Shown here: in pieces, positions 5,028 to 45,313 of the stretch
How the letters are laid out: each line of letters begins with the position of its first letter
Position numbering within the stretch: the stretch's first letter is position 1
IMG/VR virus record: IMGVR_UViG_3300002098_000007
Location: 1-55,215 of that record
From: a virus
DNA length: 55,215 nucleotides
Direction: 5' to 3' (one strand)
Notes under the pieces: generated by a model
Told to the model about the DNA's origin: nothing
Databases searched by the model: none
Seen by the model: only the letters and a program-made list of their open reading frames with translations
Program-made: the position numbers and the translations under genes

Positions 5028-5030
5028 ACT

Positions 5031-5261: not shown

Positions 5262-5291
5262 GTGTGACATAGGAATCAAAGGAATCAAATC

Positions 5292-5708
5292 ATGTCTAGT
5301 GGTGGTTTACGTAAAGGAGCAGGCCGACCCGCGGGCGCTAAGAACAGCTCCGTGGTGATTGAACCCGCTGCTCGGCGTAAGATTACCGACGCGTTAGTGG
5401 AGAAGGTCGCCGGTATCAACATCACCCCGCTGGAGGTCATGCTCAACGACATGAAGCTCCACCACGACGAAGCGCGTAAGCTGTTGGCCGAGCATGAGCA
5501 CGAGCAAGAGGACGGCGAGCGCAAGGGGCTGCTCATGAAGATGGCTAAGGTGGAGAGCGCGTTGGCTGTTGAGAGCGCGGCCAAGGTAGCGCCTTACATT
5601 CACGCAAAGTTGCAGACCACCACGTTGAAGGGCGACGCCGATAATCCGCTTGAGCTCGCGCTCATGGACGCTTCAACGCTGAAGGCTGCCGTGCGGGGGA
5701 GCAAGTGA
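5292..5708 (+). CDS. terS: Terminase small subunit
   Basis: 138 aa. N-terminal GGLRKGAGRPAGAKN, ITPLEVML and AAKVAPYIHAKL patterns are typical of small terminases. It lies directly upstream of and overlaps the large subunit. Confidence 0.65.
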   Translation: MSSGGLRKGAGRPAGAKNSSVVIEPAARRKITDALVEKVAGINITPLEVMLNDMKLHHDEARKLLAEHEHEQEDGERKGLLMKMAKVESALAVESAAKVAPYIHAKLQTTTLKGDADNPLELALMDASTLKAAVRGSK

Positions 5709-7300
5709 ACACCGTTGCGGCCGAGTATGAGAGCTGCTTGGATGTTCCGTTTGAGGCGGTCATCGACTACTGGGACACGACCACCGCCGGTGGTCGAGAT
5801 TTGAAAATGGTGCGTGCGCTGGCGTTGTGGGATCGTTACTTCCTGCTCGTGCAGATCTTCGGTCGTAAAGACTTGCTGCATCCTTGGCTCTACGCCCGCT
5901 GCCGGGAGGTCGAGCGCGCGCCGGACGGGTACTTGGACATCTATGGACGCGAGCACTACAAGTCCACAATCATCACCTACGCGGGGGTGATTCAGGAGCT
6001 CCTGCGCGACCCGGACATCACGATCGGTATCTTCAGCCACACCAAGGGTATAGCGCGAGCTTTTTTGCGACAGATCAAGGTCGAGCTAGAGAGCAATCAG
6101 CGGTTGAAGACGCTTTTCCCTGATGTACTATACGCCGACCCACAGGAGCAATCCCCTATGTGGTCACTAGACACGGGGCTCATTGTCAAGCGCCGCACTA
6201 ATCCCAAAGAGGCCACGGTTGAGGCCTGGGGCCTGGTCGACGGGCAGCCGACCTCAAAGCACTTTGCGCTCATGGTTTACGACGACGTGGTGACTCGCGA
6301 GTCGGTGAGCACCCCGGAGCAGATAAGTAAGACTACCGAGGCATGGGAGCTCAGTGACAACCTGGGTGCCCAAGGCGGGCGTAAGTGGCACACGGGCACC
6401 CGGTACTCTTACGCAGACACGTATCAAGAGCTGATGAAGCGCGGGGCCGTCAAGCCCCGTATCTACCCGGCGACGGCTGACGGGACTATCACCGGTAAGC
6501 CCGTGTTGTTTGACCAAGACACTTGGAACAAAAAGGTACGCGACCAGGGCGAAGCGACAATCAGCTGCCAGATGCTGGCCAACCCGCTCGCGAGGCACCA
6601 GCGGATGTTTGACGTGCAGGACTTGGTCGACTACGAGGTGCGCCCCGAGACGCTCGCGGTTTACCTGCTGATTGACCCCGCACGTAGCAAGAAAAGCGAC
6701 AGCGACGACACCGCGATGGCGGTAATAGGGCTTGACTACGCAAACAACAAATACCTGCTGGATGGTATGTGCCACAAGATGGATCTGATGGAGCGGTGGC
6801 AGAACACCGCTCGCCTGTACAGCCATTGGAAGACCCAAAGCGGAATTCAGGCAATCTACGTGGGGTACGAGAGCTTTGGTGCTCAGTCGGACTTGGATTA
6901 CTTCCGCGAGCAGCAGAAACTGACCGGCCTCCGTTTTGACATTACCGAGCTGGCTTGGCCCCGCGAGGGTGGAGGCAGCAAGGTCGATCGCGTGCAGCGC
7001 CTGGGCCCCGACTTCCGTAGTCATAAGTTCTACGTGCCGTACAAGACAGATGAGAAGAACCTGACGAGCAACCAGCGTAAAATGGTAGACGGCTACAAGT
7101 ACCGCATTAGCAAACCGATACGGCGCAAAAACGAGAACAACGAGATTTACGACCTCACCGAGCTGCTCAAGTTGCAGGTTCACTATTTCCCCTTTGGGGG
7201 TAAAAAAGACCTGGTGGACGCGGTGAGCCGCATTTACGACATGTCTCCCCGGCCACCCACCTACCGCGAAGCCCGCTACGCCGAGCCCGAATTTGTTTAA
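5705..7300 (+). CDS. terL: Terminase large subunit
   Basis: 531 aa with a GTG start overlapping the terS stop (GTGA). ATPase-like GREHYKST and LMVYDDV motifs are followed by a nuclease-like C-terminal half (LLIDPA...DDTAMAV). Position is immediately before the portal block. Confidence 0.8.
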   Translation: MNTVAAEYESCLDVPFEAVIDYWDTTTAGGRDLKMVRALALWDRYFLLVQIFGRKDLLHPWLYARCREVERAPDGYLDIYGREHYKSTIITYAGVIQELLRDPDITIGIFSHTKGIARAFLRQIKVELESNQRLKTLFPDVLYADPQEQSPMWSLDTGLIVKRRTNPKEATVEAWGLVDGQPTSKHFALMVYDDVVTRESVSTPEQISKTTEAWELSDNLGAQGGRKWHTGTRYSYADTYQELMKRGAVKPRIYPATADGTITGKPVLFDQDTWNKKVRDQGEATISCQMLANPLARHQRMFDVQDLVDYEVRPETLAVYLLIDPARSKKSDSDDTAMAVIGLDYANNKYLLDGMCHKMDLMERWQNTARLYSHWKTQSGIQAIYVGYESFGAQSDLDYFREQQKLTGLRFDITELAWPREGGGSKVDRVQRLGPDFRSHKFYVPYKTDEKNLTSNQRKMVDGYKYRISKPIRRKNENNEIYDLTELLKLQVHYFPFGGKKDLVDAVSRIYDMSPRPPTYREARYAEPEFV

Positions 7301-7311
7301 GGAGAAAGACT

Positions 7312-7521
7312 ATGCCCGCCAACGTACCCAACCCCGTGTCGCAGTCACAGCTGAACAACCTGGGCTACCCGGTAACCACTCGCAGCTACTCGTACCTCGA
7401 CCTCGTCATGCGTCAGTGGGGCTCTGAGTTTAAAGCGCCTGACCACGGTATCTACGAGTTCAGCAACTCTCGCCGCTTTGACAGCACCGACCAAGGCACC
7501 ACCGGGCTGTACTCGCGCTGA
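7312..7521 (+). CDS. Hypothetical protein
   Basis: 69-aa ORF with a GGAGA RBS. Confidence 0.5.
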   Translation: MPANVPNPVSQSQLNNLGYPVTTRSYSYLDLVMRQWGSEFKAPDHGIYEFSNSRRFDSTDQGTTGLYSR

Positions 7522-7573
7522 ACGGGGCTAAAATTTCCGTTTTCAACGTGTATTAACTTTCAGGAGAACCCCC

Positions 7574-7870
7574 ATGAACGAGCTGAACGACTCAGACTTG
7601 GAGAAACTGTACAAAGCTCATCAAGCCGAGAGCCACGATGCCGGACTGCGTGCGGTGTACGCGGCGGGGTTTGCAGCCGGGGCCCACCCCCAGGCCGCGC
7701 AACTTGAGCCCGCAGCCCAAGCACAGGCCCAAGCAACCGAGCTCGCCCCTGAGGAACAAGCCATAGTCGAGACTCTTGACTCAACCGAGCCGGTAACTCC
7801 GACCGAGCTGAGCTCGGGTGGATTGGCCCGGTGGGATACCCTGGCATCAACCACGGAGCCCGCAGCATGA
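7574..7870 (+). CDS. Hypothetical acidic protein
   Basis: 98-aa ORF with an AGGAGA RBS. Confidence 0.5.
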   Translation: MNELNDSDLEKLYKAHQAESHDAGLRAVYAAGFAAGAHPQAAQLEPAAQAQAQATELAPEEQAIVETLDSTEPVTPTELSSGGLARWDTLASTTEPAA

Positions 7871-8256
7871 GCGAAGTGGCAGCCAATTTGGGGCTCGACC
7901 ACTCGATCGACACCCAGCTCATCGAGGCCACACCGGACGTCGAGAACGAGCGTATGCACCTGGTCGCTAAGATGGCTGCCGGTGAGTTGGGTCGGGCCTA
8001 TCCGGGCCATCTGTGGATGATAGGCTGGGCGCCGGGTATGACGTTGGTCATCAAGCATATGTTGGGCGACGCCAAGTACGGCTACACCGTGGACGCTGCT
8101 AAGGCCGCTACTATTAGCGAGCTAGAGCACGCCATCATCATGGGCGGGGGCGAGCTGCTTGAGCGCTTAGGGCTGCCGCGTCGCGCCTGGAACGGTGACC
8201 TGCCTGAGCAAACGTATGACGGCGTCCGCCCGCAAGACCAAATTCAACTCATGTGA
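7867..8256 (+). CDS. Hypothetical protein
   Basis: ATG at 7867 overlaps the upstream stop (ATGA). The ORF-track start at 7831 would overlap the previous gene by 40 nt. Confidence 0.55.
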   Translation: MSEVAANLGLDHSIDTQLIEATPDVENERMHLVAKMAAGELGRAYPGHLWMIGWAPGMTLVIKHMLGDAKYGYTVDAAKAATISELEHAIIMGGGELLERLGLPRRAWNGDLPEQTYDGVRPQDQIQLM

Positions 8257-8267
8257 GGAATCTTAAT

Positions 8268-8477
8268 ATGCCAAAAGAAGCTATGGGCGACACCGAGCGC
8301 AAGATCCGCGAAGAACAGGCCGAAAAGAAAATGCAGGCCGCCACCGACAAAGCCTACAACAAGGCCCTCACCTACCCGGAGAGCACGCCCCCTGCAAAGT
8401 CCGCACCCGTCAAGCCCAAGATGGGCGTCGACAAGGGCGAAGCGGGCAAGCCCTGGGACGCGCTGTTCAGCAAGTGA
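8268..8477 (+). CDS. Hypothetical Lys-rich protein
   Basis: ATG 8268 is preceded by GAGGA. 69 aa. Confidence 0.5.
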   Translation: MPKEAMGDTERKIREEQAEKKMQAATDKAYNKALTYPESTPPAKSAPVKPKMGVDKGEAGKPWDALFSK

Positions 8478-8489
8478 GCGCGCACCCGT

Positions 8490-8843
8490 ATGGTTGAAGA
8501 CAAGCGTAAGCGTGGCGATGGGTGGATAGGCGTAGACCTAGACGGCACGCTCGCGCACTGGGACGGGTTTAAAGGCGAGGACCACGTCGGTAAGCCCGTT
8601 GAACCTATGGTCAAGCGCGTGCGCCAGTGGTTGCGCGAGGGGCGAGATGTTCGCCTGTTTACGGCTCGAAAGCCCCACCCCGCTATTCGTCGTTGGATGG
8701 TGGAGCACCTGGGCGAACAGCTGCCAATCACCAACGTCAAAGACCGACACATGCAGGCGTTTTATGACGACCGCGCCGTGCAAGTAACCCGCAACACGGG
8801 CGAGACCCGTGACACCGATGAAGCTCAAGCCTGGAGTAAATGA
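8490..8843 (+). CDS. Small HAD-superfamily-like phosphatase
   Basis: 117 aa with HAD motif I GVDLDGTLA, followed by FTAR and a YDDR segment. Confidence 0.5.
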   Translation: MVEDKRKRGDGWIGVDLDGTLAHWDGFKGEDHVGKPVEPMVKRVRQWLREGRDVRLFTARKPHPAIRRWMVEHLGEQLPITNVKDRHMQAFYDDRAVQVTRNTGETRDTDEAQAWSK

Positions 8844-11077
8844 TGCCCGCAATGCGCCCCGATCCCCGCAATCATTCGCCGTCGGCGCAGACCGGAGGTA
8901 CGGACTCGGGACTGCCGTCCGCGGAGTCGGATTGGTTGGAGCGCGCGCGTAGCGCGTTTTATTCTTCCACCACGTACGTCGACTCGAACCTGCGCAAGGG
9001 GTGGGACGACTCAATCCGCGCCTTCAACAACCAACACCCCTCCGACAGCAAGTACAACCAGCCCGCTTTTGACAAGCGCAGCAAAGTCTACCGCCCCAAA
9101 CTACGCACGGTAATTCGTAAGAACGAAGCCGCTGCAGCCGCGGCCTTCTTCAGCAACATGGACGTGGTGAGCGTAGACGCGAATGACGCCAGTGACAAGG
9201 CCGAGGTGGCCAGCGCGGACATCATGAAGCAGCTGCTGCAGTACCGCCTGACTAAAACCATCCCCTGGTTCCAGACCGTGCTCGGCGGCCTGCAAGATGC
9301 CCAAAACACTGGCGTCGCTTGCGCCCACATTTACTGGAAGTACGAGGAAGAAAAGCCCGAGGAAGAAGCCAAGGACTTGATGCGGAGCTTCTTTGACGCC
9401 GCCAAGGGCGAGTCCGCCCACCCCGCCCAGGCCGTTGAGCGGGGTGACGAACAGCTAGAAGATAATTCTGAGTATCCCGACCAGAACCCCGCGGGCATGC
9501 CTCGTGGTGCCTTGGTGGCTACCGAGGAAGGCGGACTTGAGGCGCCCTCAGCGGTGCAGGTTGATGCGCTGCTCGTGAGCAACGCCGAGCCCAAGGTTAA
9601 GGTAGACAAACCCTGCATTGACCTAATCCCCGTGGAGAACATCCGTATTGACCCGGGCGCGAGCTGGATAGACCCAATTGGAACCTCGCCCTACGTAATT
9701 CACCTCATGCCGATGTACGTGCAGGACGTTAAAGACCGGATGGAGAGCGGGGAGTGGCGTCAACTGGCGGACTCGGTTATTTCCTCGGCCACCGAAGTCA
9801 AGACCGACTCAACGCGTATAGCGCGACAAAAAGATCGTGATGACCCCTACTCTGCCGATGTGCGTAGCGTTGACGACTACGAGGTAGTCTGGGTTCAGCG
9901 CCACATTCACCGCCGTGACGATCAAGAGTGGGAGTTCTACACCATGGGTGACGTGGCGTTGCTCACCACCCCCAACCCTTTAAAAGAGACCGTATTCCAC
10001 GGCCAGCGACCTTACGTCATGGGGGTGTGTAACCTAGAGGCGCACAAGTTGTTCCCCTCGTCAATACCGGCGCTGGGGCGCGGGTTGGCGGATGAGACTA
10101 ACGAGATTGCCAACCAGCGCATTGACAACATTAAGTTCGTGCTCAACAAGAAGTACTTTGTCAAGCGCGGCAAAGAGGCCGACATCGCGGGTCTAGTTCG
10201 CAACGTGCCCGGTGGGGTGGTGATGCTTGACGACCCACAAACGGACGTCAAGGAGCTGACCTGGCAGGACGTCACTGCCAGCAGCTTTCAAGAGGCCCAG
10301 GGCATCGGCATGGAGTTGGACGAGTTGCTGGGGAACTTTAACCCGGCGAACTTGATGGCCCAGGGCGGTATGAACTCACCCGCGCGCAATATGGCTATGG
10401 TCAGCAACTCGCAGGGTACCCTGGTAGAGTACATGCTGCGTACGTACGTGGAGACCTTTGTTCAGCCTATTTTGCGCCAGCTGGTTAAGTTGGAGCAAGA
10501 GTACGAGACCGACAAAGTGGTGATGAAAATTGCCGCCAAGCGCGCGCAGTTGTTTCAAAAGTACGGTATTGACGAGGTCACGGATGACCTGCTCAACCGG
10601 GAGCTCACCCTGACGGTTAACGTGGGTATGGGCGCCACCGACCCGATGATGCGCTTGAACAAGTTCCTCACGGCGATGAACACCTACACGGCGATGCTAA
10701 AGCAACCCACCCCGGGTATTGACATGAAGGAAGTGGGGCGGGAGATCTTCGGTCACCTAGGTTACGCCGACGGCAGCCGGTTCTTCAGCTCAGAGGACCC
10801 ACAGATCCAGGCGTTGCAGCAGCAACTGCAGCAGGCCCAAGGCGTCATTACACAGCTGCAGCAGAAGGTACAGGAGAAGAAAGAGGCGAACCAGGTCAAA
10901 CTTCAGACCGCACAGATGTCCAACCAGACTAAGGTACAGACCACCGCCATTCACGAGCAAGCGAGCAACCAGCGCGCCCTCGCTACGCATTGGCGTGCGC
11001 TGCACGAGCACCAACTGACCACGGCGCAGAACATCGCCTCCGCGCGGCTCATGCCCCAGCAAGGGAAGACTAAATGA
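8840..11077 (+). CDS. Portal protein with a long Gln-rich C-terminal coiled coil (P22-type barrel-like)
   Basis: 745 aa, placed after terminase and before scaffold/capsid. The C-terminus reads QIQALQQQLQQAQGVITQLQQKVQEKKE. Confidence 0.8.
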   Translation: MMPAMRPDPRNHSPSAQTGGTDSGLPSAESDWLERARSAFYSSTTYVDSNLRKGWDDSIRAFNNQHPSDSKYNQPAFDKRSKVYRPKLRTVIRKNEAAAAAAFFSNMDVVSVDANDASDKAEVASADIMKQLLQYRLTKTIPWFQTVLGGLQDAQNTGVACAHIYWKYEEEKPEEEAKDLMRSFFDAAKGESAHPAQAVERGDEQLEDNSEYPDQNPAGMPRGALVATEEGGLEAPSAVQVDALLVSNAEPKVKVDKPCIDLIPVENIRIDPGASWIDPIGTSPYVIHLMPMYVQDVKDRMESGEWRQLADSVISSATEVKTDSTRIARQKDRDDPYSADVRSVDDYEVVWVQRHIHRRDDQEWEFYTMGDVALLTTPNPLKETVFHGQRPYVMGVCNLEAHKLFPSSIPALGRGLADETNEIANQRIDNIKFVLNKKYFVKRGKEADIAGLVRNVPGGVVMLDDPQTDVKELTWQDVTASSFQEAQGIGMELDELLGNFNPANLMAQGGMNSPARNMAMVSNSQGTLVEYMLRTYVETFVQPILRQLVKLEQEYETDKVVMKIAAKRAQLFQKYGIDEVTDDLLNRELTLTVNVGMGATDPMMRLNKFLTAMNTYTAMLKQPTPGIDMKEVGREIFGHLGYADGSRFFSSEDPQIQALQQQLQQAQGVITQLQQKVQEKKEANQVKLQTAQMSNQTKVQTTAIHEQASNQRALATHWRALHEHQLTTAQNIASARLMPQQGKTK

Positions 11078-12514: not shown

Positions 12515-13486
12515 ATGGCAGGACAAGTCTGGGCCGTAAACTCGCTGGGTGGCTACATGTATAGCCGTCAGCTGTCAAACGTGTTGCGCATGGCCGTGCA
12601 ACCATTGGTAAAGTTCCGTCAGTTTGCTGACGTGCGCGATGCCAGCCAACAGGGTAAAAAGAAGGGTGATATTTTCACTTGGGACGTGTTCTCTGATGTC
12701 GCCACCGCGGGTGGTGCGTTGGTTGAGACTAACACTATGCCTGAGACCAACTTCACAATCGTGCAGGGTACCCTGACGATTACCGAAGCCGGTAACAGCG
12801 TTCCCTACTCGGGTAAGCTGGACAACTTGTCCAAGTTTCCCGTGATGGAGCTCATCCAGAAAGTCTTGAAGAACGACGCCGTCAAGACCTTTGACCGTTT
12901 TGCCTGGAACCAGTTCAACCAGACCGTATTGCGCGCTATCCCCACCGGTGGTACTGACACTGCTGCGGTTACGTTGTACACCAACGGCACCGTGACTGGC
13001 ACAAACAACGTGGCCTTTAACAACGCCCACGCCAAGTCGGTCGTTGACCAGATGAAGGAACGTAACATTCCTGCGTACCTGGGTGATGACTACTACGCGC
13101 TGGCCTGGCCAACTACGTTGCGTTCGTTCAAGAACAACCTTGAGACCATCCACCAGTACTCGGACACTGGTTTCAAGTTGATCATGAACGGCGAAATTGG
13201 TCGTTACGAGAACGTCCGCTACGTCGAGCAAACCAACATCGCCAAGGGTACCGGCACCGACGGTATCACCCAAACGCCTTGGACTAACGGTAAGTCTGAC
13301 TGGATTTACTTCTTCGGCAACGACACCGTGGCTGAGGCCATCGCTGTGCCCGAGGAAATGCGCGGTAAGATTCCGTCTGACTACGGTCGTAGCAAAGGCG
13401 TGGCCTGGTACTACCTGGGCGGCTTTGGTATCGTTCATACTCTTGCTTCCAATGCTCGCATTGTCAAGTGGGACTCACAGGCTTAA
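12515..13486 (+). CDS. Major capsid protein (HK97-fold type)
   Basis: 323 aa with a strong AGGAG RBS. Its position after the scaffold and a composition typical of coat proteins support the call. Confidence 0.8.
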   Translation: MAGQVWAVNSLGGYMYSRQLSNVLRMAVQPLVKFRQFADVRDASQQGKKKGDIFTWDVFSDVATAGGALVETNTMPETNFTIVQGTLTITEAGNSVPYSGKLDNLSKFPVMELIQKVLKNDAVKTFDRFAWNQFNQTVLRAIPTGGTDTAAVTLYTNGTVTGTNNVAFNNAHAKSVVDQMKERNIPAYLGDDYYALAWPTTLRSFKNNLETIHQYSDTGFKLIMNGEIGRYENVRYVEQTNIAKGTGTDGITQTPWTNGKSDWIYFFGNDTVAEAIAVPEEMRGKIPSDYGRSKGVAWYYLGGFGIVHTLASNARIVKWDSQA

Positions 13487-13513: not shown

Positions 13514-13921
13514 ATGGCTACTAAAAACATGGCTTACGACCACCCCGCCTACTTGGCGCGCGTGGGCGCGGCGATGGGCGAAGCCGGGGGCGCCGCCACC
13601 ACTCAGTACGCTAAATTTGCCGCGTTCACCGCGATGCAAGCCTTTAGCGCACAGCTCACCGTCACCACCGCCGGAACGGCTACCGCGCACGGCTTTCAGG
13701 TCGTCAAGATTAGCGGCACCGCGACCACCGCGCTCGGCACCGCCACGCTGGGCACCAGCGCTGCGGGCACGACGCAGAACTTGTTGCTGACCAACGTCAG
13801 CGGCGGGGTTGCGTTGGCGCAGGGCGACATCTTGGCTGCGATCTCGCTCGCGGACGTGGTGGGTAAAGCCGCCATCGCCTACGAGCACGCCGCGCAGCCT
13901 TTGGCTAACGTCACCGCCTAA
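13514..13921 (+). CDS. Ala/Thr-rich head protein (possible decoration protein)
   Basis: 135 aa, directly downstream of the capsid gene with an AGGAG RBS. Confidence 0.5.
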   Translation: MATKNMAYDHPAYLARVGAAMGEAGGAATTQYAKFAAFTAMQAFSAQLTVTTAGTATAHGFQVVKISGTATTALGTATLGTSAAGTTQNLLLTNVSGGVALAQGDILAAISLADVVGKAAIAYEHAAQPLANVTA

Positions 13922-13933: not shown

Positions 13934-14356
13934 ATGGCTGGAAACACAACCACCAAGAAGACCTTCAACAGCATTCGCGAAGACGCTGTTGAAAAAGCCC
14001 GTCCCTCCAAGGGCGTCAACTACAGCAATCGCCCTGGCGTCTACGACGGCCAGCTCAGCGGCATGCGCGAGAAATTTGCCGACCCCATGAACATGGGCGC
14101 GCCGGCAAAAATTGGCGGCGGCATTGCCGGCCTGCACAACGACATTGGCGAAATGTCGGGCTTCGTGACCGATGGTTACCTTGACAAAGGCAACACCCCT
14201 TACGGTGAGAACGCCAAGTTCAACTTCATGCCTCCGGGTATGGACATCGGTAACCAGGAGATGGCCGAGATCCACGACATGCCACTGCGCAAACTCGTGG
14301 CCGAGTCTTACCCCGGCGATGGCTGGATGCCCACCCCCCGTGACATCACGGAGTAA
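13934..14356 (+). CDS. Hypothetical virion-module protein, PPGMDI-motif paralogue A
   Basis: 140 aa. It contains KFNFMPPGMDIGNQ...MPL, a motif shared with the next gene. Confidence 0.6.
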   Translation: MAGNTTTKKTFNSIREDAVEKARPSKGVNYSNRPGVYDGQLSGMREKFADPMNMGAPAKIGGGIAGLHNDIGEMSGFVTDGYLDKGNTPYGENAKFNFMPPGMDIGNQEMAEIHDMPLRKLVAESYPGDGWMPTPRDITE

Positions 14357-14384: not shown

Positions 14385-14422
14385 GAGCACAGGTGCCGTA
14401 AAAAAGCCCTGTGCTCTTTTTT
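14385..14422 (+). terminator. Rho-independent terminator
   Basis: A 9-bp stem gagcacagg / cctgtgctc (14385-14393 / 14408-14416) is followed by TTTTTT (14417-14422). A 7-bp hairpin aactgca-gtag-tgcagtt (14360-14377) precedes it. Confidence 0.7.
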
Positions 14423-14437
14423 AATTGGAGAACCAAA

Positions 14438-14851
14438 ATGTCTTTACAAGAGAAATTCCAGATCACCGTACCCCCAACCAAACCCGAGGAGGAGTCTTGG
14501 GTGGGGTTTGGGCAGGTGCGTAACGTGGGCGAGGCGGGCTTCCTGCATCAAAACAACAGCGAGGCCACCGGCCCCCTGGGGCCCAAGTTCAACACTGCCC
14601 CTCCGGGTATGGATATCAGCAACCAGTTGCGTAGTCGAATCCTGCAAATGCCTTTGACCATGGCCGGTGAAACCGACGTCAGCAAGGACACCAACGAACA
14701 GGCTTTTGCGCGAGGCTTTACCCGTCGCGACATGAAGGGCACCGACGACCAATACACCGGCGAACACATGGATCACTTCTACGGCGAGGTGGTTAATGAG
14801 TACGGCGAGGTGGGTTTTATTGAGCGCAACAACTACCTCGACAGGGAGTAA
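14438..14851 (+). CDS. Hypothetical virion-module protein, PPGMDI-motif paralogue B
   Basis: ATG 14438 follows GGAGA (the ORF-track start at 14411 lies inside the terminator). It contains KFNTAPPGMDISNQ...MPL. Confidence 0.6.
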   Translation: MSLQEKFQITVPPTKPEEESWVGFGQVRNVGEAGFLHQNNSEATGPLGPKFNTAPPGMDISNQLRSRILQMPLTMAGETDVSKDTNEQAFARGFTRRDMKGTDDQYTGEHMDHFYGEVVNEYGEVGFIERNNYLDRE

Positions 14852-15726: not shown

Positions 15727-16146
15727 ATGAAGTTCAACCCCGGCCAGCCGCACGGCACAATTGTGGGCCACGAGTGGGCCCGCTACGAGCAAAACGGCAT
15801 CCTCTACGACGGCGCGGGGTTGATCCCCGAGGCCGCCGCGGCAATAGACAAAGCCGCCGCGAAACCAGCTAAAAACGCGCCAGCGAGCAAAACAAAAACA
15901 GAAGCCAAGGCCGAGCCCAAGGCCCCCGCTCCGCAGGACGATTTGAAGCTAAAAAACGCCACCGAGTTCTTGACTAATTTGCTCTCCGGCGGGCCAATCG
16001 ACAAATCCGTTGTGTTCAAAGAGTCGGACAGCAACTGCCAAGACTGGGGCACCGTGAAGGCCGCCTTTGCGCAGATGAACGGGGTGAGCTTCAAGCGCGG
16101 GCAGTCTGAAATCTGGCGCCTGAACCCTGAGGAGGTTCAGCAATGA
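15727..16146 (+). CDS. Hypothetical protein
   Basis: 139 aa with a GGAGA RBS and a central Ala/Lys/Pro-rich linker. Confidence 0.55.
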   Translation: MKFNPGQPHGTIVGHEWARYEQNGILYDGAGLIPEAAAAIDKAAAKPAKNAPASKTKTEAKAEPKAPAPQDDLKLKNATEFLTNLLSGGPIDKSVVFKESDSNCQDWGTVKAAFAQMNGVSFKRGQSEIWRLNPEEVQQ

Positions 16147-17717
16147 CATGGGACGCAACTGAGCCGTACATGGCGGAGTCGAAAAAGATCGTCTGGGAGG
16201 TGGCCCCGTACCTACGCGGGCGGGGCTTAGACATTGGCGCGGGGGACTTCAAAGTCCTGCCTCACGTCATCAGCGTGGACAACATGCACCACTCGCAGTT
16301 CGGGTTCAGCGTCAAGCCGGACGTGATGTGCGAGGCGAGCAACTTAGATGTCTTCGGTAGCCAGTCGATGGATTTTGTTTACAGCAGCCATACGCTTGAG
16401 CACATTGCTGACTACGAGAATACGCTTAAAGAATGGTGGCGCGTCATCAAACAAAACGGCTACCTCATACTCTACCTGCCCGATGAGGACGAATACCCCA
16501 AGGTGGGCACCCCACACGCCAATCCTGATCACAAGTGGGACGTCAACTACGACAAAGTAGTTAACGCCATGAGTTGTGTCAAGGGCGGGTGGGATTTGAT
16601 TGACTTTCAGAAACGTAATGCTGACAACGAGTACAGTTTGTATTTTGTGTTTAAAAAGCAGAACTCTGACAAGTTCAAATTCAGTTACAAAAACCCTAAG
16701 CCTGAAAAAACCGCCTGCGTAGTGCGTTACGGCGCGTTCGGAGATATGATGATGGCTTCCTCAGTGTGGGCCGGGCTCAAAAAGCAGGGTTATCACGTCA
16801 CGGTGTTTTGCTCGCGCCCGGGTAGCGATGTTGTCACTAATGATCCCAACATAGACAACCTGGTGCTGTTTGACAAAGACCAAGTGCCTAATGCGAACCT
16901 GGTGGATTTCTGGGGTTATCAGGCCAACAAGTTTGACAAGTTCGTAAATTTGAGCGAGTCGGTTGAGGGTACGTTCCTGGCTATGCCCGGGCGCGCCCCG
17001 CACAAGTGGCCCGCCGCGTTACGCCACAAGCACATGAACGCCAACTACGTTCAGTTCTCACACGAGCTAGCGGGCGTGCCGCACGAGCCGCAGGTGAAGT
17101 TCTACCCCACTACGGAGGAGCTAGACTGGGCCCGTAAAACTCGCGCCAAAATGGGCGACGGGGTCATCATGTGGTCGCTGGCGGGGTCTTCTGTGCACAA
17201 AACCTGGGCCGGACTTGACAACATACTCGCCGCGGTGATGACCAATTTCCCCTCGGTGCATGTGGTATTGGTCGGTGGGCCGGAGTGCGTGATGCTGGAG
17301 GCTGGATGGGAGAACGAACCCCGCGTGCACAAGACCTCGGGCAAGTGGAGCATACGCCAGAGTCTGTCGTTCTTGTACGAGTGCGACCTGGTGATTGGCT
17401 CCGAGACCGGGGTGCTGAACGCGGCGGCCTGTCTCGACGTGCCTAAAATTACGTTGTTGTCACACTCAACACACGAGAACTTGACCCGCGACTGGAAGAA
17501 CGTGATACCGATCGCCTCGGAAAACACCACCTGCCCCGGGCGCGGCAACAACGACGCCCCCGCGTGTCATCAACTGCACTACGGCTGGGTGCACTGCAAA
17601 CAAGACCCCCACCAGGGCGTTGCGCAGTGCCAAGCCGACATCAGCGTCGACACCGTATGGCAGGCCACCTACGGCGTCATCAAAGCTGCGCTCGAGCGCA
17701 ACAGGAAGGTAGCGTAA
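16143..17717 (+). CDS. Fusion protein: class I SAM-dependent methyltransferase (N-terminal) + glycosyltransferase family 9 (heptosyltransferase-like, C-terminal)
   Basis: 524 aa. The N-terminus has GLDIGAGDF (motif I) and FVYSSHTLEHI...NGYLILYLP (Methyltransf_11-like). The C-terminus has VVRYGAFGDMMMAS...HVTVF, VLVGGPEC, SGKWSIRQSLSFLYECDLVIGSETGVLNAAA, the GT9 pattern. Its ATGA overlaps the upstream gene. Confidence 0.8.
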   Translation: MTWDATEPYMAESKKIVWEVAPYLRGRGLDIGAGDFKVLPHVISVDNMHHSQFGFSVKPDVMCEASNLDVFGSQSMDFVYSSHTLEHIADYENTLKEWWRVIKQNGYLILYLPDEDEYPKVGTPHANPDHKWDVNYDKVVNAMSCVKGGWDLIDFQKRNADNEYSLYFVFKKQNSDKFKFSYKNPKPEKTACVVRYGAFGDMMMASSVWAGLKKQGYHVTVFCSRPGSDVVTNDPNIDNLVLFDKDQVPNANLVDFWGYQANKFDKFVNLSESVEGTFLAMPGRAPHKWPAALRHKHMNANYVQFSHELAGVPHEPQVKFYPTTEELDWARKTRAKMGDGVIMWSLAGSSVHKTWAGLDNILAAVMTNFPSVHVVLVGGPECVMLEAGWENEPRVHKTSGKWSIRQSLSFLYECDLVIGSETGVLNAAACLDVPKITLLSHSTHENLTRDWKNVIPIASENTTCPGRGNNDAPACHQLHYGWVHCKQDPHQGVAQCQADISVDTVWQATYGVIKAALERNRKVA

Positions 17718-17720: not shown

Positions 17721-18677
17721 ATGAGCACTTCGGGCTCTTACTCATTCACGGTCAACCGGGATCAAATCATCCGGCAGGCGATGCTTACCATCGGCAAATT
17801 GGACGAGTCCGAAGTGCCCAACGCGCAGGAGGTCTCAGACTGCGCCTTTACGCTCAATCTGCTCATCAAACAGTGGCAGGGGCGCACTGACTTTGCGCCG
17901 GGTCTCAAAGTGTGGACGCGGCGTCGAGGTCACCTGTTTTTGAACGGAGCCTCCGGACAATATAGCGTTGGCCCGTCCGCTGTGGGTTGGACTGAGAACT
18001 ACGTGTACCCGCTCACCACCGCGGGAGCTAACGCTGCTGCCACCGCAGTGGTGGTTAGCTCGGCTTCAGGCATCGCCACGGGTTACAACATCGGCGTGCA
18101 GTTGGACTCGGGGTTGTTGTTCTGGACAACTGTAGCGTCGGTTGCTGGCACTACGGTGAACCTAAACGCCCCGCTGCCTAGTAAGTCTTCCAGCGGGTCG
18201 CAGGTATTTGCGTACCAGACCACTGCTCAGCAACCGTTGACAATTGAGACCGCGGTGTTGCGTGACAATCAGCTGAACGACACCCCGATGAAGATCATGA
18301 CGGTGCAGGACTACGACTACCTGCCTAGCAAAGTTGCGCCGTTGAACATTGGCGACCCCACGGCAATTTACTACGAGTTCCAACTCGGCAACTCTTATCT
18401 CTACACCGACATTGCCGCTGCTCAAGACGTCAGCAAGCATCTGGTGCTCACGTACTTAGAGTCCGTTCAGGATGTGCTTCAGGCATCTGACAACTTTGAG
18501 TACCCGCAGGAGTGGTTCCTGCCGCTCTCGTTAGGACTCGGCAAGCAGATCGCGCCGATGTTTAATGCGAGCTGGACAGCGCTGATGCAGGACAACTACG
18601 TCGAGGCGCTTTCAATCGCCCGACGTAAAGACCCCGAGCGTAGCAGTATGTTCTTTCAACCAGGGGCCGAAGAGTGA
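17721..18677 (+). CDS. Head-to-tail adaptor, P22 gp4-like N-terminus
   Basis: 318 aa. N-terminal RDQIIRQAMLTIGKL...VSDCAFTLNLLIKQWQG parallels the remembered P22 gp4 pattern (LVRAALRKLGV...AVDDLEAMMAEWYQDG). Its position precedes the gp10-like gene. Confidence 0.5.
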   Translation: MSTSGSYSFTVNRDQIIRQAMLTIGKLDESEVPNAQEVSDCAFTLNLLIKQWQGRTDFAPGLKVWTRRRGHLFLNGASGQYSVGPSAVGWTENYVYPLTTAGANAAATAVVVSSASGIATGYNIGVQLDSGLLFWTTVASVAGTTVNLNAPLPSKSSSGSQVFAYQTTAQQPLTIETAVLRDNQLNDTPMKIMTVQDYDYLPSKVAPLNIGDPTAIYYEFQLGNSYLYTDIAAAQDVSKHLVLTYLESVQDVLQASDNFEYPQEWFLPLSLGLGKQIAPMFNASWTALMQDNYVEALSIARRKDPERSSMFFQPGAEE

Positions 18678-20146
18678 AAGCGATACCGCTGTTTGGCGAT
18701 GGGGTCAACGCCTATTCCCCGGTGGTGTCGCGCCAACGGCGCTTGAACTGTTTTTACGACGTACGCAAGGACGGCGACAAGTACAGCTCAATACTCCGCG
18801 GTACGCCGGGTAGCGTTCGTTTTGTGCAGCTGCCCACGTACCCCGTGCGCGGTTGGCGCGTGGTGGGTAGTCTACTCTACGTAGTTGCCGGCTCGGCTCT
18901 CTACTCGGTTAACACTTCGGGTGCGTACACGGTGTTGGGGGCGCTGACAATCTCAAACAGCTCCGTCAGCATGTCTGACAACGGGGTGCAGTTGGGTATG
19001 GTGGACGGGGCGTCGCTTTACTGCTACACGCTGGTGACCGGGAGCTATTCTCAATCGGCTTTGAACACCGCGGGTTCGTTCGGCAAGGTGACCGATGCGA
19101 ACTTCCCCGCCGGGGCTACCTCGTTGGCGTTTCTGGATGGACGCATAATCACCAACCGCCCGAGCTCTCGTCAATTCTACGTCTCTGAGCAGTATGACTT
19201 GACGGCTTGGACAAACGTGAGCTCGCTGCCCACCTACGGCACTAAGGAAAATAGCTCAGACCAGTTGCTAGCGGTTGACGTTCTAAACGGTGCGTTGGTG
19301 TTGTGGGGGGCGCAGTCAATAGAGTTCTGGCAAGACGTCGGCAGCTTCCCGCTACCCTTCCAGCGCATTAACGGCGCTACGCAGACCTGGGGTCTCGCCT
19401 CGGTATACAGCCGGGCGTTCCTCAACAACACGATGATCTTTTTAGGTCAGAACCCCCAGGGCGGCGTTCAGGTCATGCTGCTCAACGGATACGCGCCTCA
19501 GCGGGTGAGCACCTCGGACATTGAGAACATCTTCAGCAGCTTCAGCACCGTGACCGATGCCACCGCGCTGACGTACATTGTTGACGGACACCCGATGTAC
19601 CAGATCAACTTCCCCACCGCGAACCGTTCGTTTTTGTACGATGCGCTTACGGGTATCTGGCAGGAAGTGCAAACTGGCCTCGCCATTCAGGCCCGACACT
19701 ACGGCAACCTCGGGGTGGCTTTCAACGCTGAGAATTACATCTCGGACTACAGCTCGGGCAACATCTATCAACTCCGCACTGATGTCTACACCGACAACGG
19801 TTCACCAATCAAACGTCAAGTCGCCTCGCGCCACATGCACGCCGGGGGTAACGAGCTCGCACTATCGGAGCTCTGGCTTGACATTGAGACCGGTGTAGGG
19901 CTGCAGGCCGGGCAAGGCGTTGACCCCCAGATCATGCTCCAAGTCTCCCGCGACGGGGGGCGCACCTTTGGCGCTGAAAAGTGGGTGTCGATTGGTAAAG
20001 TGGGGCAGTACCTTTCGCCCCGGGCGTATTGGAAGCGTCTCGGCTCTGCAAAAGATTTTGTCTTCCAATGGACGGTGACTGACCCAGTAAAGTTCACAAT
20101 TGTAGGCGGCTCGGCACAGCCCCGGGAAACTACTAACAATGGCTAA
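18674..20146 (+). CDS. Tail hub / tail accessory factor, P22 gp10-like (phage stabilisation protein family)
   Basis: 490 aa with a GTG start overlapping the upstream stop. By eye it is colinear with remembered P22 gp10 blocks (SIEFWQDVG..., MYQINFP...FLYD, LQVSRDGGRTFG...YWKRLG). Confidence 0.6.
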   Translation: MKAIPLFGDGVNAYSPVVSRQRRLNCFYDVRKDGDKYSSILRGTPGSVRFVQLPTYPVRGWRVVGSLLYVVAGSALYSVNTSGAYTVLGALTISNSSVSMSDNGVQLGMVDGASLYCYTLVTGSYSQSALNTAGSFGKVTDANFPAGATSLAFLDGRIITNRPSSRQFYVSEQYDLTAWTNVSSLPTYGTKENSSDQLLAVDVLNGALVLWGAQSIEFWQDVGSFPLPFQRINGATQTWGLASVYSRAFLNNTMIFLGQNPQGGVQVMLLNGYAPQRVSTSDIENIFSSFSTVTDATALTYIVDGHPMYQINFPTANRSFLYDALTGIWQEVQTGLAIQARHYGNLGVAFNAENYISDYSSGNIYQLRTDVYTDNGSPIKRQVASRHMHAGGNELALSELWLDIETGVGLQAGQGVDPQIMLQVSRDGGRTFGAEKWVSIGKVGQYLSPRAYWKRLGSAKDFVFQWTVTDPVKFTIVGGSAQPRETTNNG

Positions 20147-20811: not shown

Positions 20812-23658
20812 ATGGCTGAAAACGCACAAAATTATGGATGGCCTCAAAACGCAGAGCCTTCTACCTATTCTTTGCCAAGTCTTAGCGATATTTCAAAAGC
20901 AAGAACAAATGCTCGTCAGTTTGGTGACGGTACTGCCTATGCGCTTGATTTCAATGTAAACGGTCAAAATTACACGTTTGTGCCTAAAAACGTTGCATCA
21001 AATGGCGGCGTTACTGCTGGAGAAAACACGTATTTGCTGCCTTACTTTACGGACGCAAACAATCAAAAAGACTTTAACAAAAATGCTCAAGCGTTTGATC
21101 TTTCCTCAAACACTGGTTTAGCAAATTACCTTCAAAGCCAAGGTCAATCAACTAATGGTTATTTAATCCCAAGCGACAAAGTATCGTTTGATGGAAATGT
21201 GTTAACCCAACCGACAAGCACTTTGGGCGGTTCATTGTCTGGCCTTAAACAAACAGGCGATGGGTTTTCTTATGGAATTAGTGGCGGTCATGGTCAACGT
21301 TATCTGACTTCTACAGGTGAAGTTCATGACCCTTACGAAACAAAAAGCTCATTACTTGGTGATATTTTTGGTGGTGTTGGACAAAGCATTTCCGATTTTG
21401 CAAACACAGATTTGGGCAAAGCGGCTTTAGCTGCTGCCTCTATTTACGCAGGGCTGCCTCCTGAGGCTTCTGCTTTAGACGTTTCCGGAGCAGATGTTGT
21501 TACTGGAAGCATGGCGGGCGTAGCGCCCACGGCTGAGGCCGTCGCGGCAGGGCAAGCCGCCGCTGATACGACTGCCGAGGCGGCGGGCGTTGCAGCAACG
21601 CCCTCGGCTCCGGCTTTAACGACTTCTGATTTAACTGCTAATGGTGCTGTTTATTCTCCAGATCAAGGCGTTTGGATTGATCCTAAAACCGGGCAGATCG
21701 CGGCAGGCTCAGCCGGGGTTGCTCCGGACGCTTCGTCTTTTATTACGCCGATTGACACTACGAGTTTTCAATACACCCCGCCGAGCGTCGGCCCCGCCGT
21801 TCAAGTCGCTAGCACCGACGCTGGCGCGGGCGTAGCCGAGGCTGCACAAGCCGCACAGCCCAGCACATTGGCTTCTGGGTTGAGCACAGCACCCGAAATG
21901 ACCGCTCAGCAGACCCTAGACGCCATAAACGCGGAACAGCAAGCCGCGGGCGTGACTTCGGCGGCTGCGGCTCCCGCAACTGCGGCTTCAACGCTCAGCC
22001 CCACCACTCAGTCCGCGCTCAGTTCCGCGTTGAAAGGGGCTGCCGTTTCGGGCGGCATAGCCGCGGCTACGGGGGGTGACGTTGCTAAGGCGGCGTTGAC
22101 CGGCGGGGCTGTTGGGGGTGCTGTTGGGGGTGCAGCCCCCGCAATCAGTTCAGCAATTGGGCCAACTATGACAGATACCTTGGGAACCACAGGCGGGCAG
22201 GCCGCCACTTCGGCAATCACTAGCGCGATTCTAGGCGGAACCGTAGCCGCGGTTACGGGCGGTGACTTCCTGAAGGCCGCGCTCACCGCGGGAACCGTGG
22301 GGGGCGTTGCTTCCGCTGCAGGAGCAGTGAGCAACGCTATAAGTTCAGCCCTGGGTGTCACCCCTACAACAAATACAACAGGAGGCAACGTGGCCACAGG
22401 TTCGACTGGGACGACTATGGACGCCTCACAAATTCAGGCCGCGGTGCAGGCCTATGTTGACGCGGGATACTCTCAGGAGCAAGCTGCGCAGTTCGTGGCT
22501 GACGCTACGGGTTCCAACGTCGATGTTGTGAACAACGCGGTCATCAACGGGGTGGGTTCAATCACCACCAGCGACCAAGGCGCTTACACGCTCGCTTCAG
22601 GCGTCTCCCAGGCCGCAGGGGTTAACCCTGCCAACATTACCAACCCCGCCGGCGGAGCTGCCTCAGGAACCAACGTCATTACTGCCGCACTACAGGCCGC
22701 CGCAGCTCAGCAAGCCGGACAGCAACTCGCCGCCGGGGCAACCGGCGCAGCGGGTGTGTTGGCTCCGGCTTACACTGCCGCAGGCGCTAAGCAGGCCGCC
22801 GCACAAACCGGCGCCGCACAGACCCTAGCCAGCGCGTATGGCACGGCAGGGGAGCAACAGATCGCGGGCTTGAAAGACGCTCAGGGCACGGTGGCCAACA
22901 TCTTAGGTGTTGAGACCGCGAATCAACAGCCCTATCAAGCGCTGGGCACCGGAGCGGCTAGTACGCTGGCTGCGGGGCTCGCGCCGGGTGGGCAGTTCAA
23001 CAAACCTTTCAGCACCGCCGACATGGCCAACGTCATGCCTGCGTACACCTTTGCTGAACAACAAGCCCAGGCCGCGATGGCTAACAAAATGGCCGCCGGG
23101 GGACAGAACCTGAGCACCAACGCTGTTCAGGGTGCGGGTACGCTGGCCGCCGGGTTGGCGTCTCAGTACGAACAGCAGGCTTTTAACCAGTGGTTGCAGT
23201 CAAACAACCTGAGCCTAGGCGCGCTGCAGAACGCCGTAGCCACCGGACAGACTTCTACGGCGCAGTTGCAAAGCGCACTACAGCAGGCCGGACTCAGCAG
23301 CGAAGCTATTCAGCAGGCTATTGGGCAGGTCGGCGCTACCTCAACGCTCGGCGCTGCTCAAGCTACGGGTGCGGGGCAAATTGGCGCGGCTAACGCGCTG
23401 GCGGGTGCGGACGTTAACGCCGCGGGGGCTACTGCTTCGGGCATACTTGGGGCTTCTAAGGCTCAGGCCGCAGGCACCACCGGCACAGCCAATGCGCTGA
23501 ACACCGCTATCGGCAATATCAGCACAAATACCGTTCAACAGAACGCCACTACGGCAGCCAACAGCCCGATTAACAACCTGATTGCGCAGAACCCGGCAAA
23601 CACCCTGGCTAGCGGGTTGTCTCAGACCTCAGCTACCGGCGGAACCTTGAAAATTTAA
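20812..23658 (+). CDS. Internal virion / ejection protein candidate, largely Ala/Gly/Thr/Gln low-complexity
   Basis: 948 aa, first of three large ORFs between the tail hub and the fibre. Residues after ~210 are almost entirely A/G/T/S/Q. Confidence 0.5.
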   Translation: MAENAQNYGWPQNAEPSTYSLPSLSDISKARTNARQFGDGTAYALDFNVNGQNYTFVPKNVASNGGVTAGENTYLLPYFTDANNQKDFNKNAQAFDLSSNTGLANYLQSQGQSTNGYLIPSDKVSFDGNVLTQPTSTLGGSLSGLKQTGDGFSYGISGGHGQRYLTSTGEVHDPYETKSSLLGDIFGGVGQSISDFANTDLGKAALAAASIYAGLPPEASALDVSGADVVTGSMAGVAPTAEAVAAGQAAADTTAEAAGVAATPSAPALTTSDLTANGAVYSPDQGVWIDPKTGQIAAGSAGVAPDASSFITPIDTTSFQYTPPSVGPAVQVASTDAGAGVAEAAQAAQPSTLASGLSTAPEMTAQQTLDAINAEQQAAGVTSAAAAPATAASTLSPTTQSALSSALKGAAVSGGIAAATGGDVAKAALTGGAVGGAVGGAAPAISSAIGPTMTDTLGTTGGQAATSAITSAILGGTVAAVTGGDFLKAALTAGTVGGVASAAGAVSNAISSALGVTPTTNTTGGNVATGSTGTTMDASQIQAAVQAYVDAGYSQEQAAQFVADATGSNVDVVNNAVINGVGSITTSDQGAYTLASGVSQAAGVNPANITNPAGGAASGTNVITAALQAAAAQQAGQQLAAGATGAAGVLAPAYTAAGAKQAAAQTGAAQTLASAYGTAGEQQIAGLKDAQGTVANILGVETANQQPYQALGTGAASTLAAGLAPGGQFNKPFSTADMANVMPAYTFAEQQAQAAMANKMAAGGQNLSTNAVQGAGTLAAGLASQYEQQAFNQWLQSNNLSLGALQNAVATGQTSTAQLQSALQQAGLSSEAIQQAIGQVGATSTLGAAQATGAGQIGAANALAGADVNAAGATASGILGASKAQAAGTTGTANALNTAIGNISTNTVQQNATTAANSPINNLIAQNPANTLASGLSQTSATGGTLKI

Positions 23659-45311: not shown

Positions 45312-45313
45312 CT

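Follow-up and report, generated by a model that had tools for sequence, protein, structure and literature searches.

A methyltransferase-GT9 glycosyltransferase fusion within the head genes of uncultured phages: a candidate enzyme for virion-protein glycosylation and O-methylation

In this study, we examined an enzyme gene lying among the structural genes of an uncultured virus, IMGVR_UViG_3300002098_000007, whose whole contig of 55,215 bp (the window) is a podovirus-like genome. The gene, an open reading frame (ORF) of 524 aa on the plus strand (16143..17717), was delimited from the ORF list and the sequence, and Pfam and an AlphaFold2 model identify its product as a methyltransferase (MT) fused to a glycosyltransferase (GT) of family GT9; we refer to it as MT-GT. 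The motifs by which a first-pass annotation of this DNA had recognised the two parts (GLDIGAGDF, SSHTLEHI, NGYLILYLP, VVRYGAFGDMMMAS, VLVGGPEC and SGKWSIRQSLSFLYECDLVIGSETGVLNAAA) are all found in the translation, and the tight junctions that it described are there as well. At the 5′ end, the ATG (16143-16145) overlaps the TGA (16144-16146) of the upstream 139-aa gene in an ATGA coupling, and at the 3′ end the TAA (17715-17717) is separated by 3 nt from the next ATG at 17721. A Shine-Dalgarno-like AGGAGG (16130..16135, +), read from the sequence, is placed 7 nt 5′ of the MT-GT start, within the end of the upstream gene. On the plus strand, sites resembling promoters or terminators were not found next to MT-GT, their counts being those of the shuffle background, and its G+C content resembles that of the neighbouring genes. 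By this co-transcriptional anatomy, MT-GT would be expressed late, together with the structural genes.

That the protein joins a class I S-adenosylmethionine (SAM)-dependent methyltransferase to a GT9-like enzyme of the GT-B fold, as had been proposed from the motifs, is upheld by Pfam matches above the cutoffs, by the AlphaFold2 fold and by Foldseek, whose top matches are GT9 proteins. The MT domain covers approximately residues 1-176 (16143..16670, +), limits that were taken from the DSSP assignment of the model and from loci in which MT and GT are split, and it matches Methyltransf_11 at residues 61-110 (37.9 bits; cutoff 21.2). The GT domain, approximately residues 186-524 (16698..17714, +), matches Glyco_transf_9 (PF01075) at residues 295-460 (28.7 bits; cutoff 22); this match is partial, covering profile positions 61-229 of 247, and many homologues carry the same precomputed match. 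A PHROGs search of MT-GT detects the methyltransferase alone. The AlphaFold2 model, built from an alignment of 68 homologues, has a mean predicted local distance difference test score (pLDDT) of 88.1 and a predicted template modelling (TM) score of 0.83, and its layout is a Rossmann-type domain (~12-172), a short linker, a two-lobed GT-B (190-335, 340-457) and a long C-terminal helix (502-523). Compared with the PDB by Foldseek, the N-terminal half resembles class I methyltransferases of the small-molecule type (1vlm, 3l8d, 8ys9), the first of which it also matches by sequence. The GT half matches 3tov (E = 1.6e-13), WaaF (1psw, 3.6e-12), WaaC (2h1h, 5e-8) and TibC (4rap, 2e-6), with 3tov and WaaF at ranks 1-3 and a TM-score relative to the target of 0.65. 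With E. coli WaaF, hhalign gave a colinear alignment of 297 columns; with WaaC it gave a local match of 37 columns only, at the last motif (VDTGLSHLTAA), and the MT-GT family profile reaches 3tov weakly. Profile and structure searches place the C-terminal half inside GT9/GT-B.

Judged from their conserved residues, both halves look catalytically competent. Asp201 in GAFGD(201)MMM (codon 16743..16745, +) is the candidate catalytic base; it aligns with SWVGDMMM of WaaF, is D in 136/136 representatives, and presumably corresponds to Asp13 of WaaC. Lys353 in SSVHK(353)TW (codon 17199..17201, +), a candidate ligand of the donor phosphate, aligns with GPAKRWP of WaaF and is K in 150/151. The counterpart of the GT9 D-T/S-G motif would be Glu421-Thr422-Gly423 in GSETGVLNAAA (17403..17411, +), which aligns with NDSGLMHVAAA of WaaF and VDTGLSHLTAA of WaaC; E421 is present in 143/149 representatives, with Asp in 4 more, and R405 in 149/149. 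In TibC, Asp110 would be the residue equivalent to Asp201 (PMC4358343). These counts refer to ~150 GT representatives that are only 35-63% identical, among which D201, K353 and E421-T-G are kept in 96-100%. On the MT side, G26, G28, D30, G32 and G34 of motif I (GLDIGAG) are invariant in 68 close homologues, and D46/N47, SSHxLEH and N127/H130 are conserved. Finally, an N-lobe loop (residues 274-284; 16962..16994, +), the sole segment of the model with a pLDDT below 50, is a candidate acceptor-binding loop, and E272, E275, G276, L279, R284 and R294 in and around it are invariant in the close family.

Conservation of this kind also bears on whether MT-GT is an enzyme that acts on the virion at all, rather than a non-catalytic structural or assembly factor with an enzyme fold, or the maker of a free small molecule unrelated to the virion. 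GT9-like folds can indeed be structural, plant NDH subunits being among the fold matches (9grx, 7wff, 7f9o). Nevertheless, the Asp, the Lys, the Glu-Thr-Gly and SAM motif I are conserved almost absolutely across deep divergence, and the exchange of MT partners described below argues for a chemical product that needs methylation; we regard both of these explanations as highly improbable.

The first-pass annotation had taken GT9 enzymes to transfer heptose from ADP-heptose to the inner core of lipopolysaccharide (LPS). This is correct but incomplete, as GT9 also contains the protein O-heptosyltransferases TibC and AAH (bacterial autotransporter heptosyltransferases, BAHT; 4rap/4rb4), which O-heptosylate proteins in the cytoplasm using ADP-heptose (PMC4358343). 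Because TibC and AAH are cytoplasmic protein-directed enzymes, membership of GT9 does not imply an LPS acceptor; it is also the ground from which ADP-heptose may be inferred as the donor of MT-GT. With WaaF and WaaC (GT9; 1psw, 2h1h) and the uncharacterised GT9 protein 3tov, MT-GT shares the GT-B fold, PF01075 and its best structural matches, together with the N-terminal G-D motif (GDMMM, as in WaaF), the C-lobe Lys and the D/E-T/S-G motif. It differs from WaaF and WaaC in its identity of 12-17%, its separate clade, the MT fusion, the Cys/His insertion and its location in a phage head module, and a lipid-anchored core as acceptor, as for these two enzymes, appears unlikely. With TibC and AAH it shares the GT9 catalytic domain and the fold match noted above, and its four invariant Cys, placed much as the metal finger of these enzymes, are a possible counterpart of that finger. 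However, the flattened N-terminal beta-barrel that TibC needs for activity is replaced in MT-GT by the Rossmann-type methyltransferase of residues 1-176, the fold match is weaker than that to WaaF, and BAHT enzymes form a dodecameric ring. Moreover, the neighbours of MT-GT are phage structural genes, with no adjacent autotransporter substrate gene.

The Cys/His cluster of MT-GT (C464, C475, H476, H479, C485 and C496; 17532..17630, +), recognised from conservation and from the DSSP assignment of the model, is a presumed metal-binding module. In the model it occupies a poorly structured insertion that follows the final C-lobe strand (454-457) and precedes the C-terminal helix. Its residues are invariant in the 68 close homologues and kept in 85-99% of 150 distant representatives, whereas E. 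coli WaaF has no Cys in the stretch aligned to it, and the Cys-rich C-terminal segment alone gave no PDB match by sequence. TibC (406 residues) carries in a C-lobe insertion, preceding its C-terminal segment, an iron finger of four Cys (Cys339/342/358/370), needed for oligomerisation and for recognition of the protein substrate (PMC4358343). The spacing of these Cys differs from the 464/475/485/496 plus His of MT-GT, and the likeness in position is suggestive.

Such a fusion had initially been considered unexpected in a virion operon. To the contrary, it is conserved in a very large group of uncultured phages, and its GT clade is found in several unrelated head modules. A metagenome protein collection yielded 3374 MT-GT homologues at E ≤ 1e-3, the best 120 of which are full length, 61-80% identical and encoded on contigs of up to about 50-62 kb; the identical MT-GT protein was present on six contigs from several samples. 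Searched alone with phmmer, the GT domain gave 914 clusters (at 50% identity) at E ≤ 1e-3 and 327 at E ≤ 1e-30. As phmmer gives no connection to the bulk of cellular GT9, the clade appears to be a discrete family at the level of sequence. By contrast, tblastn of 50,697 GenBank phage records found no homologue of the fusion at E ≤ 1e-5 and none of the GT half even at E ≤ 1, and the MT half matched only generic Methyltransf_11 genes. A probe of the same records with E. coli WaaF matched only records resembling host-DNA contamination and was discarded. Homologues do occur, evidently within prophages, in large contigs of cultured bacteria, namely Paraburkholderia sp. C35, P. rhynchosiae WSM 3937, Aromatoleum anaerobium LuFRes1 and Pseudothauera rhizosphaerae CC-YHH848, and also in many metagenome-assembled genomes (MAGs), mostly of Proteobacteria.

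The position of MT-GT is kept in the 27 loci from IMG/VR and in 37 of those from the genome collection. Within the window's clade it is flanked by the capsid gene on one side and the adaptor/nozzle genes on the other, and in 53 loci (window included) it is found 0.5-4.6 kb downstream of the same capsid family, with MT-GT identity down to 31%. This linkage to the capsid gene persists where homologues of the adaptor and nozzle are undetectable and the downstream genes encode other structural proteins. In addition, the GT clade recurs within at least four other, unrelated head modules. In an HK97-like module (L062), the order is terminase, portal, protease, phrog_10 capsid gene, a 134-aa gene, MT-GT and an Ad1 adaptor; in an SU10-like module (L238), it is SU10 portal, Phage_capsid_4 capsid gene, two small genes, an FkbM-GT fusion and Gp80, and the GT is 29% identical to that of the window over 362 aa (E = 5e-43), with the motifs kept. 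A lambda-like module (L236) has GpA terminase, FkbM-GT, a 68-aa gene and Phage_portal_2, with the capsid gene and Phage_cement_2 further on, and in L235 the FkbM-GT is placed two genes upstream of the capsid gene (Phage_capsid_3), and SU10-type adaptors are encoded downstream. In the prophages of isolates, MT-GT is located between the capsid gene and downstream structural genes and not in a lysogeny or moron position. Judged by the capsid protein, Vibrio phages such as D65 (55% identity) are the closest cultured relatives, and they are without MT-GT; since they keep the family of the 139-aa gene directly before the next structural gene, MT-GT is an added cassette at the junction of head and connector genes.

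These contexts are informative as to whether MT-GT remodels the host envelope, placing, in lysogens or at a late stage of infection, a (methyl)heptose on the inner core of LPS or on a different envelope glycan, with receptor masking, exclusion of other phages or keeping progeny off debris as the pay-off. In temperate phages, GTs that bring about seroconversion are a familiar feature. Among solved structures, LPS heptosyltransferases come closest, the GDMMM motif is common to MT-GT and WaaF, JGI labels the homologues as ADP-heptose:LPS heptosyltransferase, and GT9 and SAM-MT genes of P. aeruginosa prophages have been filed under viral defence proteins (PMC10449497). Set against this, every locus examined has a phage head morphogenesis context with no adjacent LPS genes, and recurrence in several unrelated head modules is not what LPS conversion would predict. 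MT-GT is translationally coupled inside a virion operon without a promoter or terminator of its own, and the prophage copies, likewise set among structural genes and unconnected to lysogeny modules, should thus stay silent in a lysogen. The window phage itself looks lytic, with its own polymerase, primase and helicase and no integrase seen, and a late cytoplasmic enzyme could alter only newly made LPS. The family is also well separated from cellular GT9 (only 914 GT clusters at 50% identity and E ≤ 1e-3). Taken together, we consider envelope remodelling unlikely.

As partner of the GT, the methyltransferase half (METHYLTRANSFERASE) is interchangeable. Most loci carry true MT-GT fusions with a linker of 16-55 nt; in L023 and L043, MT and GT are split into two genes by insertions of ~470-560 nt exactly at the domain junction, and in a few loci, such as L063, no MT is seen. 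The representatives show one and the same GT with Methyltransf_11, with an FkbM-type Methyltransf_21 or with both (P0193, P0233) as its fused partner. Because different MT families were recruited independently, this argues that methylation acts on the product of the GT, which by analogy with A064R of chlorovirus PBCV-1 would be an O-methyl sugar.

Some observations stand beside this exchange of partners. The insertion in L023 (8444-8969) holds a pair of small basic ORFs (79 and 93 aa), neither of them matched in Pfam, and the L023/L043 insertion could be a small mobile cassette. A GT9-FkbM gene by a Nif11 gene (L239; ENA contig_229004, 54 kb) was not used as evidence, its GT9 not being detectably related to that of the window. 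This gene (8001-9794) encodes a cellular GT9 + FkbM fusion directly after a Nif11-domain small protein and before a PhyH-type dioxygenase; Nif11 domains are known as leaders of ribosomal peptides, and the locus may represent a glycosylating and methylating system for a ribosomal peptide. We also encountered cellular proteins combining tetratricopeptide repeats (TPR), an FkbM methyltransferase and GT9 (P0437, P0452 and P0464, e.g. from an Oscillatoria MAG), and a TPR protein of cyanophage S-SRM01 also matched the GT fold. The combination of TPR and GT is reminiscent of protein-directed glycosyltransferases.

If the product is placed on a virion protein, the candidates lie close by. The major capsid protein (12515..13486, +; phrog_1357, major head protein) is 60-95% identical in MT-GT loci, and two families of small genes persist between its gene and MT-GT, the 13514 family (38/53 loci) and the 15727 family (34/53). 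The latter comprises the 139-aa gene translationally coupled to MT-GT (15727..16146, +), which has a conserved N-terminal motif of ~30 aa, PYG..G..A.YEQDG.LFD. It was rejected as a dedicated partner of MT-GT, since D65 keeps the family without MT-GT (E = 7.5e-12), and is a general head-module gene. The former begins directly after the capsid gene and encodes a Thr/Ala-rich protein of 135 aa (13514..13921, +), a putative capsid decoration or cement protein and a candidate acceptor. In this family the motifs VTTAGT and TLGT.AAG and a C-terminal PLANVTA are conserved, and AlphaFold2 predicts an all-beta sandwich of jelly-roll type (pLDDT 90.3). The fold has no PDB match at E ≤ 1e-3; the best TM-score, 0.60/0.65, is to the trimeric cement protein of KHP40 (7dou) at an E of only 1.5e-2. 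A decoration or cement role for the modelled protein is plausible, if weakly supported, and its role as acceptor is speculative. In the capsid protein, an alignment of 47 sequences from MT-GT loci with that of D65 revealed five clade-specific Thr columns and a 9-residue insertion, which carry no statistical weight.

From these data, we propose that MT-GT is a late enzyme that glycosylates and O-methylates a virion protein, a proposal that we regard as about evenly poised between right and wrong. MT-GT would be a soluble bifunctional enzyme whose GT domain puts a sugar on a hydroxyl of a virion protein, in the cytoplasm and during assembly. The fused SAM-dependent methyltransferase would then O-methylate that sugar, capping it and changing the surface chemistry. 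The acceptor would most likely be a head protein, either the capsid protein or the small jelly-roll decoration-like protein next to it, and the pay-off may be masking of the virion surface, stability or altered adsorption properties. The sugar would most likely be L-glycero-D-manno-heptose from the ADP-heptose pool of the host. The spanin gene of the window indicates a Gram-negative host, the prophage relatives are found in isolates of Betaproteobacteria, and hosts of this kind make ADP-heptose, such that the donor would be available. Even if a virion protein is the acceptor, heptose and some other sugar are roughly balanced in probability, because the sugar-binding motif is ETGxxN, not DTGxxH. 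Modification of a virion protein is the explanation that we favour, since it accounts for the late coupled expression, the recurrence in unrelated head modules, the swapping of the MT and the existence of a protein-directed branch of GT9. The first-pass annotation had held that virion proteins, LPS and DNA could not be told apart as targets; the comparative context now separates them in part and favours virion-protein modification over the other two.

Several points weigh against virion-protein modification. Structurally, the GT is nearer to LPS enzymes (3tov and WaaF, ~1e-13) than to TibC (2e-6), it has GDMMM in common with WaaF, and MT-GT is without the N-terminal beta-barrel of TibC. The D-to-E and H-to-N changes in the sugar-binding motif might mean that the donor is not ADP-heptose. 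The 135-aa protein is weakly supported as a decoration protein (Foldseek E = 1.5e-2), its family is present in just 38/53 loci, and comparison of 47 capsid proteins from MT-GT loci with that of Vibrio phage D65, which is without MT-GT, revealed no convincing clade-specific Ser/Thr site. In one locus (L013), MT-GT lies beside adaptor and nozzle genes with no capsid gene detected within 8 kb upstream. Lastly, the head-module position is equally compatible with a packaged, ejected enzyme. As a separate observation on L013, the place of the capsid block directly before MT-GT (694-7981) is taken by three large ORFs, of 790, 618 and 1021 aa, for which PHROGs gives no match, and the module order is rearranged.

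A packaged and ejected protein, or else a late host-directed effector, would modify a host protein or metabolite, for instance to disarm a defence system. Late co-expression, like position, fits a packaged protein equally well, strong purifying selection on the catalytic residues fits any enzymatic role, and GT9 enzymes can target proteins (PMC4358343). However, no capsid-targeting or cleavage signal is evident in MT-GT, and its repeated adjacency to capsid or decoration-like genes, despite differing ejection and tail proteins, is simpler to understand with a head protein as the substrate. We know of no precedent for ejected glycosyltransferases of the MT-GT type, and find an effector role quite unlikely.

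The remaining candidate target is the phage DNA. A DNA-modification cluster had been predicted at 43.5-49.4 kb, and we indeed found there a thymidine-hypermodification cluster (43749-47954, -) that encodes an HD/YfbR-like nucleotidase, a thymidylate synthase-like protein, a 5-hydroxymethyldeoxyuridine (5-hmdU) DNA kinase (helical and kinase parts) and an amino acid:DNA transferase; a 371-aa gene without an assignment (48481-49596) accompanies the cluster in relatives. MT-GT could thus decorate the hypermodified thymidines made by this 43.7-48 kb cluster with a methylated sugar, for which the presence in the window of the thymidylate synthase-like protein, the kinase and the transferase speaks, as does the fact that phage DNA can carry heptose, as 5-Hep-mC (bioRxiv 10.1101/2023.12.21.572611). 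Known DNA GTs are T4 beta-glucosyltransferase-like or GT-A enzymes encoded beside base-modification genes, and clustering of the intact pathway is the rule (bioRxiv 10.1101/2023.12.21.572611). The T4 beta-glucosyltransferase-like enzymes resemble MT-GT in being phage GT-B enzymes, some of which put heptose on DNA; they belong to another GT-B family and, unlike MT-GT, are clustered with base-modification genes (bioRxiv 10.1101/2023.12.21.572611). In the window, by contrast, MT-GT lies 26 kb from the cluster, on the opposite strand and in the virion operon. The MT half is of the Methyltransf_11 type with small-molecule methyltransferases as best fold matches, the GT clade is found in lambda-like, HK97-like and SU10-like head modules and in prophages, and no cultured phage record carries a relative of MT-GT or its GT, in a collection assumed to include known thymidine-hypermodifying phages.

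The two modules can also be followed separately. The replication/hypermodification module occurs in phages whose head module is unrelated and whose examined stretch contains no MT-GT. Among 80 relatives identified by DNA polymerase, most have the thymidine cluster and four do not, and none is an MT-GT contig. A 53.8-kb contig without the cluster has an unrelated terminase, and the 10 kb downstream of this gene revealed neither a capsid gene of the window type nor MT-GT; this walk showed mosaicism and is not a clean presence/absence test. Within the group, the replication/hypermodification module and the head module assort independently, and we judge DNA to be a very unlikely target of MT-GT. 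As to the relatives themselves, L076, L103, L104 and L110 share the replication module but not the thymidine cluster, and a single strand encodes their helicase, primase and polymerase. In L110, the place of the thymidine cluster (704-2926) holds a Vut_1/YhhQ-family transporter identified by Pfam; DpdA-like and QueC/PAPS-reductase-like genes read there by eye received no confirmation from Pfam. L110 may represent a swap to a different DNA-modification system.

To our knowledge, phage virion glycosylation has been experimentally shown only in mycobacteriophages, where it alters antibody recognition and where the GTs are not GT9 enzymes, and it has not yet been demonstrated for virion proteins of phages of Gram-negative bacteria. 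As summarised in one source, mycobacteriophages of cluster O have an O-methyltransferase gene and, after it, three genes for GTs; capsid and tail tube proteins are modified by the gene products (PMC11600133, citing Freeman 2023). On that account, they offer a direct precedent for phage GTs and an O-methyltransferase acting on virion proteins, although the genes are separate and the hosts are Actinobacteria (PMC11600133). A second point of comparison is PBCV-1 A064R, in which two GT domains are joined to an MT. The latter methylates, at O-2, the rhamnose at the end of the major capsid protein glycan, a sugar newly attached by the GT (PMC9614988). Like MT-GT, it is a virus-encoded soluble multidomain enzyme of GT and SAM MT, but its GTs are unrelated (one GT-A-like and one of a new family), the virus is a eukaryotic giant virus, the glycan is N-linked and the order is GT-GT-MT. 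GT9 enzymes, class I methyltransferases and virus-encoded virion glycosylation are known kinds. As far as we have searched the literature, the GT9 clade, its Cys/His module, its fusion to interchangeable MTs and its systematic placement in head modules are undescribed. The nearest mention is a table that lists 'glycosyltransferase family 9' and 'SAM-dependent methyltransferase' among the defence functions of three P. aeruginosa prophages (PMC10449497), genes that may or may not be members of this clade.

The rest of the window has the organisation of a podovirus-like genome. On the plus strand, genes for helicase, primase, large terminase, portal and capsid are followed by six small genes, MT-GT, a 318-aa gene and the 490-aa nozzle/stabilisation gene, and then by giant virion proteins, a tail spike/fibre and the lysis genes; the minus strand carries recombination genes, DNA polymerase and the thymidine-hypermodification cluster. 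The 318-aa gene (17721..18677, +), belonging to phrog_12985 (unknown function) and syntenic with MT-GT in the close clade, had been described as a gp4-like adaptor 3 nt downstream of MT-GT. The spacing is as described, and the gene is an adaptor by position only, with no Pfam, PHROG-function or PDB match. The 490-aa tail hub/nozzle ('stabilisation') protein (18674..20146, +) belongs to phrog_578, carries a precomputed match to Phage_stabilise (PF11134), a family that we take to be that of P22 gp10, and matches 9vyg (E = 5e-23) and 7eeq (E = 1.6e-15).

Several other genes of the window deserve mention in their own right. A PurD-like ATP-grasp enzyme (29218-30549, +) has matches above the cutoffs to GARS_A (52.8 bits) and GARS_C (35.3 bits) and none in PHROGs, and lies between giant virion proteins (1298 aa and 1288 aa) as a second enzyme within the structural operon. 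Two adjacent paralogous small genes (13934-14356 and 14411-14851, +) have a common PPGMDI.NQ motif, and their family has 38 members in 23 related loci with no Pfam or PHROG match. A 948-aa low-complexity protein (20812-23658, +), extremely rich in Ala, Gly, Thr and Ser, has no family match, and parts of it are conserved in relatives. In the early region, a 227-aa protein (52386-53069, -) has YdcK beta-solenoid repeats and a weak bactofilin match.

In its most general form, our proposal would be that these enzymes constitute a third functional branch of GT9 beside the LPS and the autotransporter heptosyltransferases, phage-specific, with a Cys/His finger and an interchangeable MT, which O-(methyl)heptosylates capsid or decoration proteins and would be the first known system of virion glycosylation in phages of Gram-negative bacteria; we advance this broader claim tentatively and hold it to be rather less than evenly probable. 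If true, the branch would be widespread, spanning thousands of uncultured phages, at least five head-module types and prophages of cultured Betaproteobacteria, and GT9 would gain a new class of acceptor. It would also correct a routine mis-annotation, in which such genes are labelled 'LPS heptosyltransferase'; one survey of prophages placed a GT9 gene under glycosyltransferase defence and, as a separate entry, a SAM-methyltransferase gene under anti-restriction (PMC10449497). The hypothesis is testable, given the prophage-like relatives in cultured Paraburkholderia, Aromatoleum and Pseudothauera and the availability of E. coli, which makes ADP-heptose. Were it to hold, our views of the virion surface, of phage stability and adsorption and of immune recognition would change for many phages of Proteobacteria.

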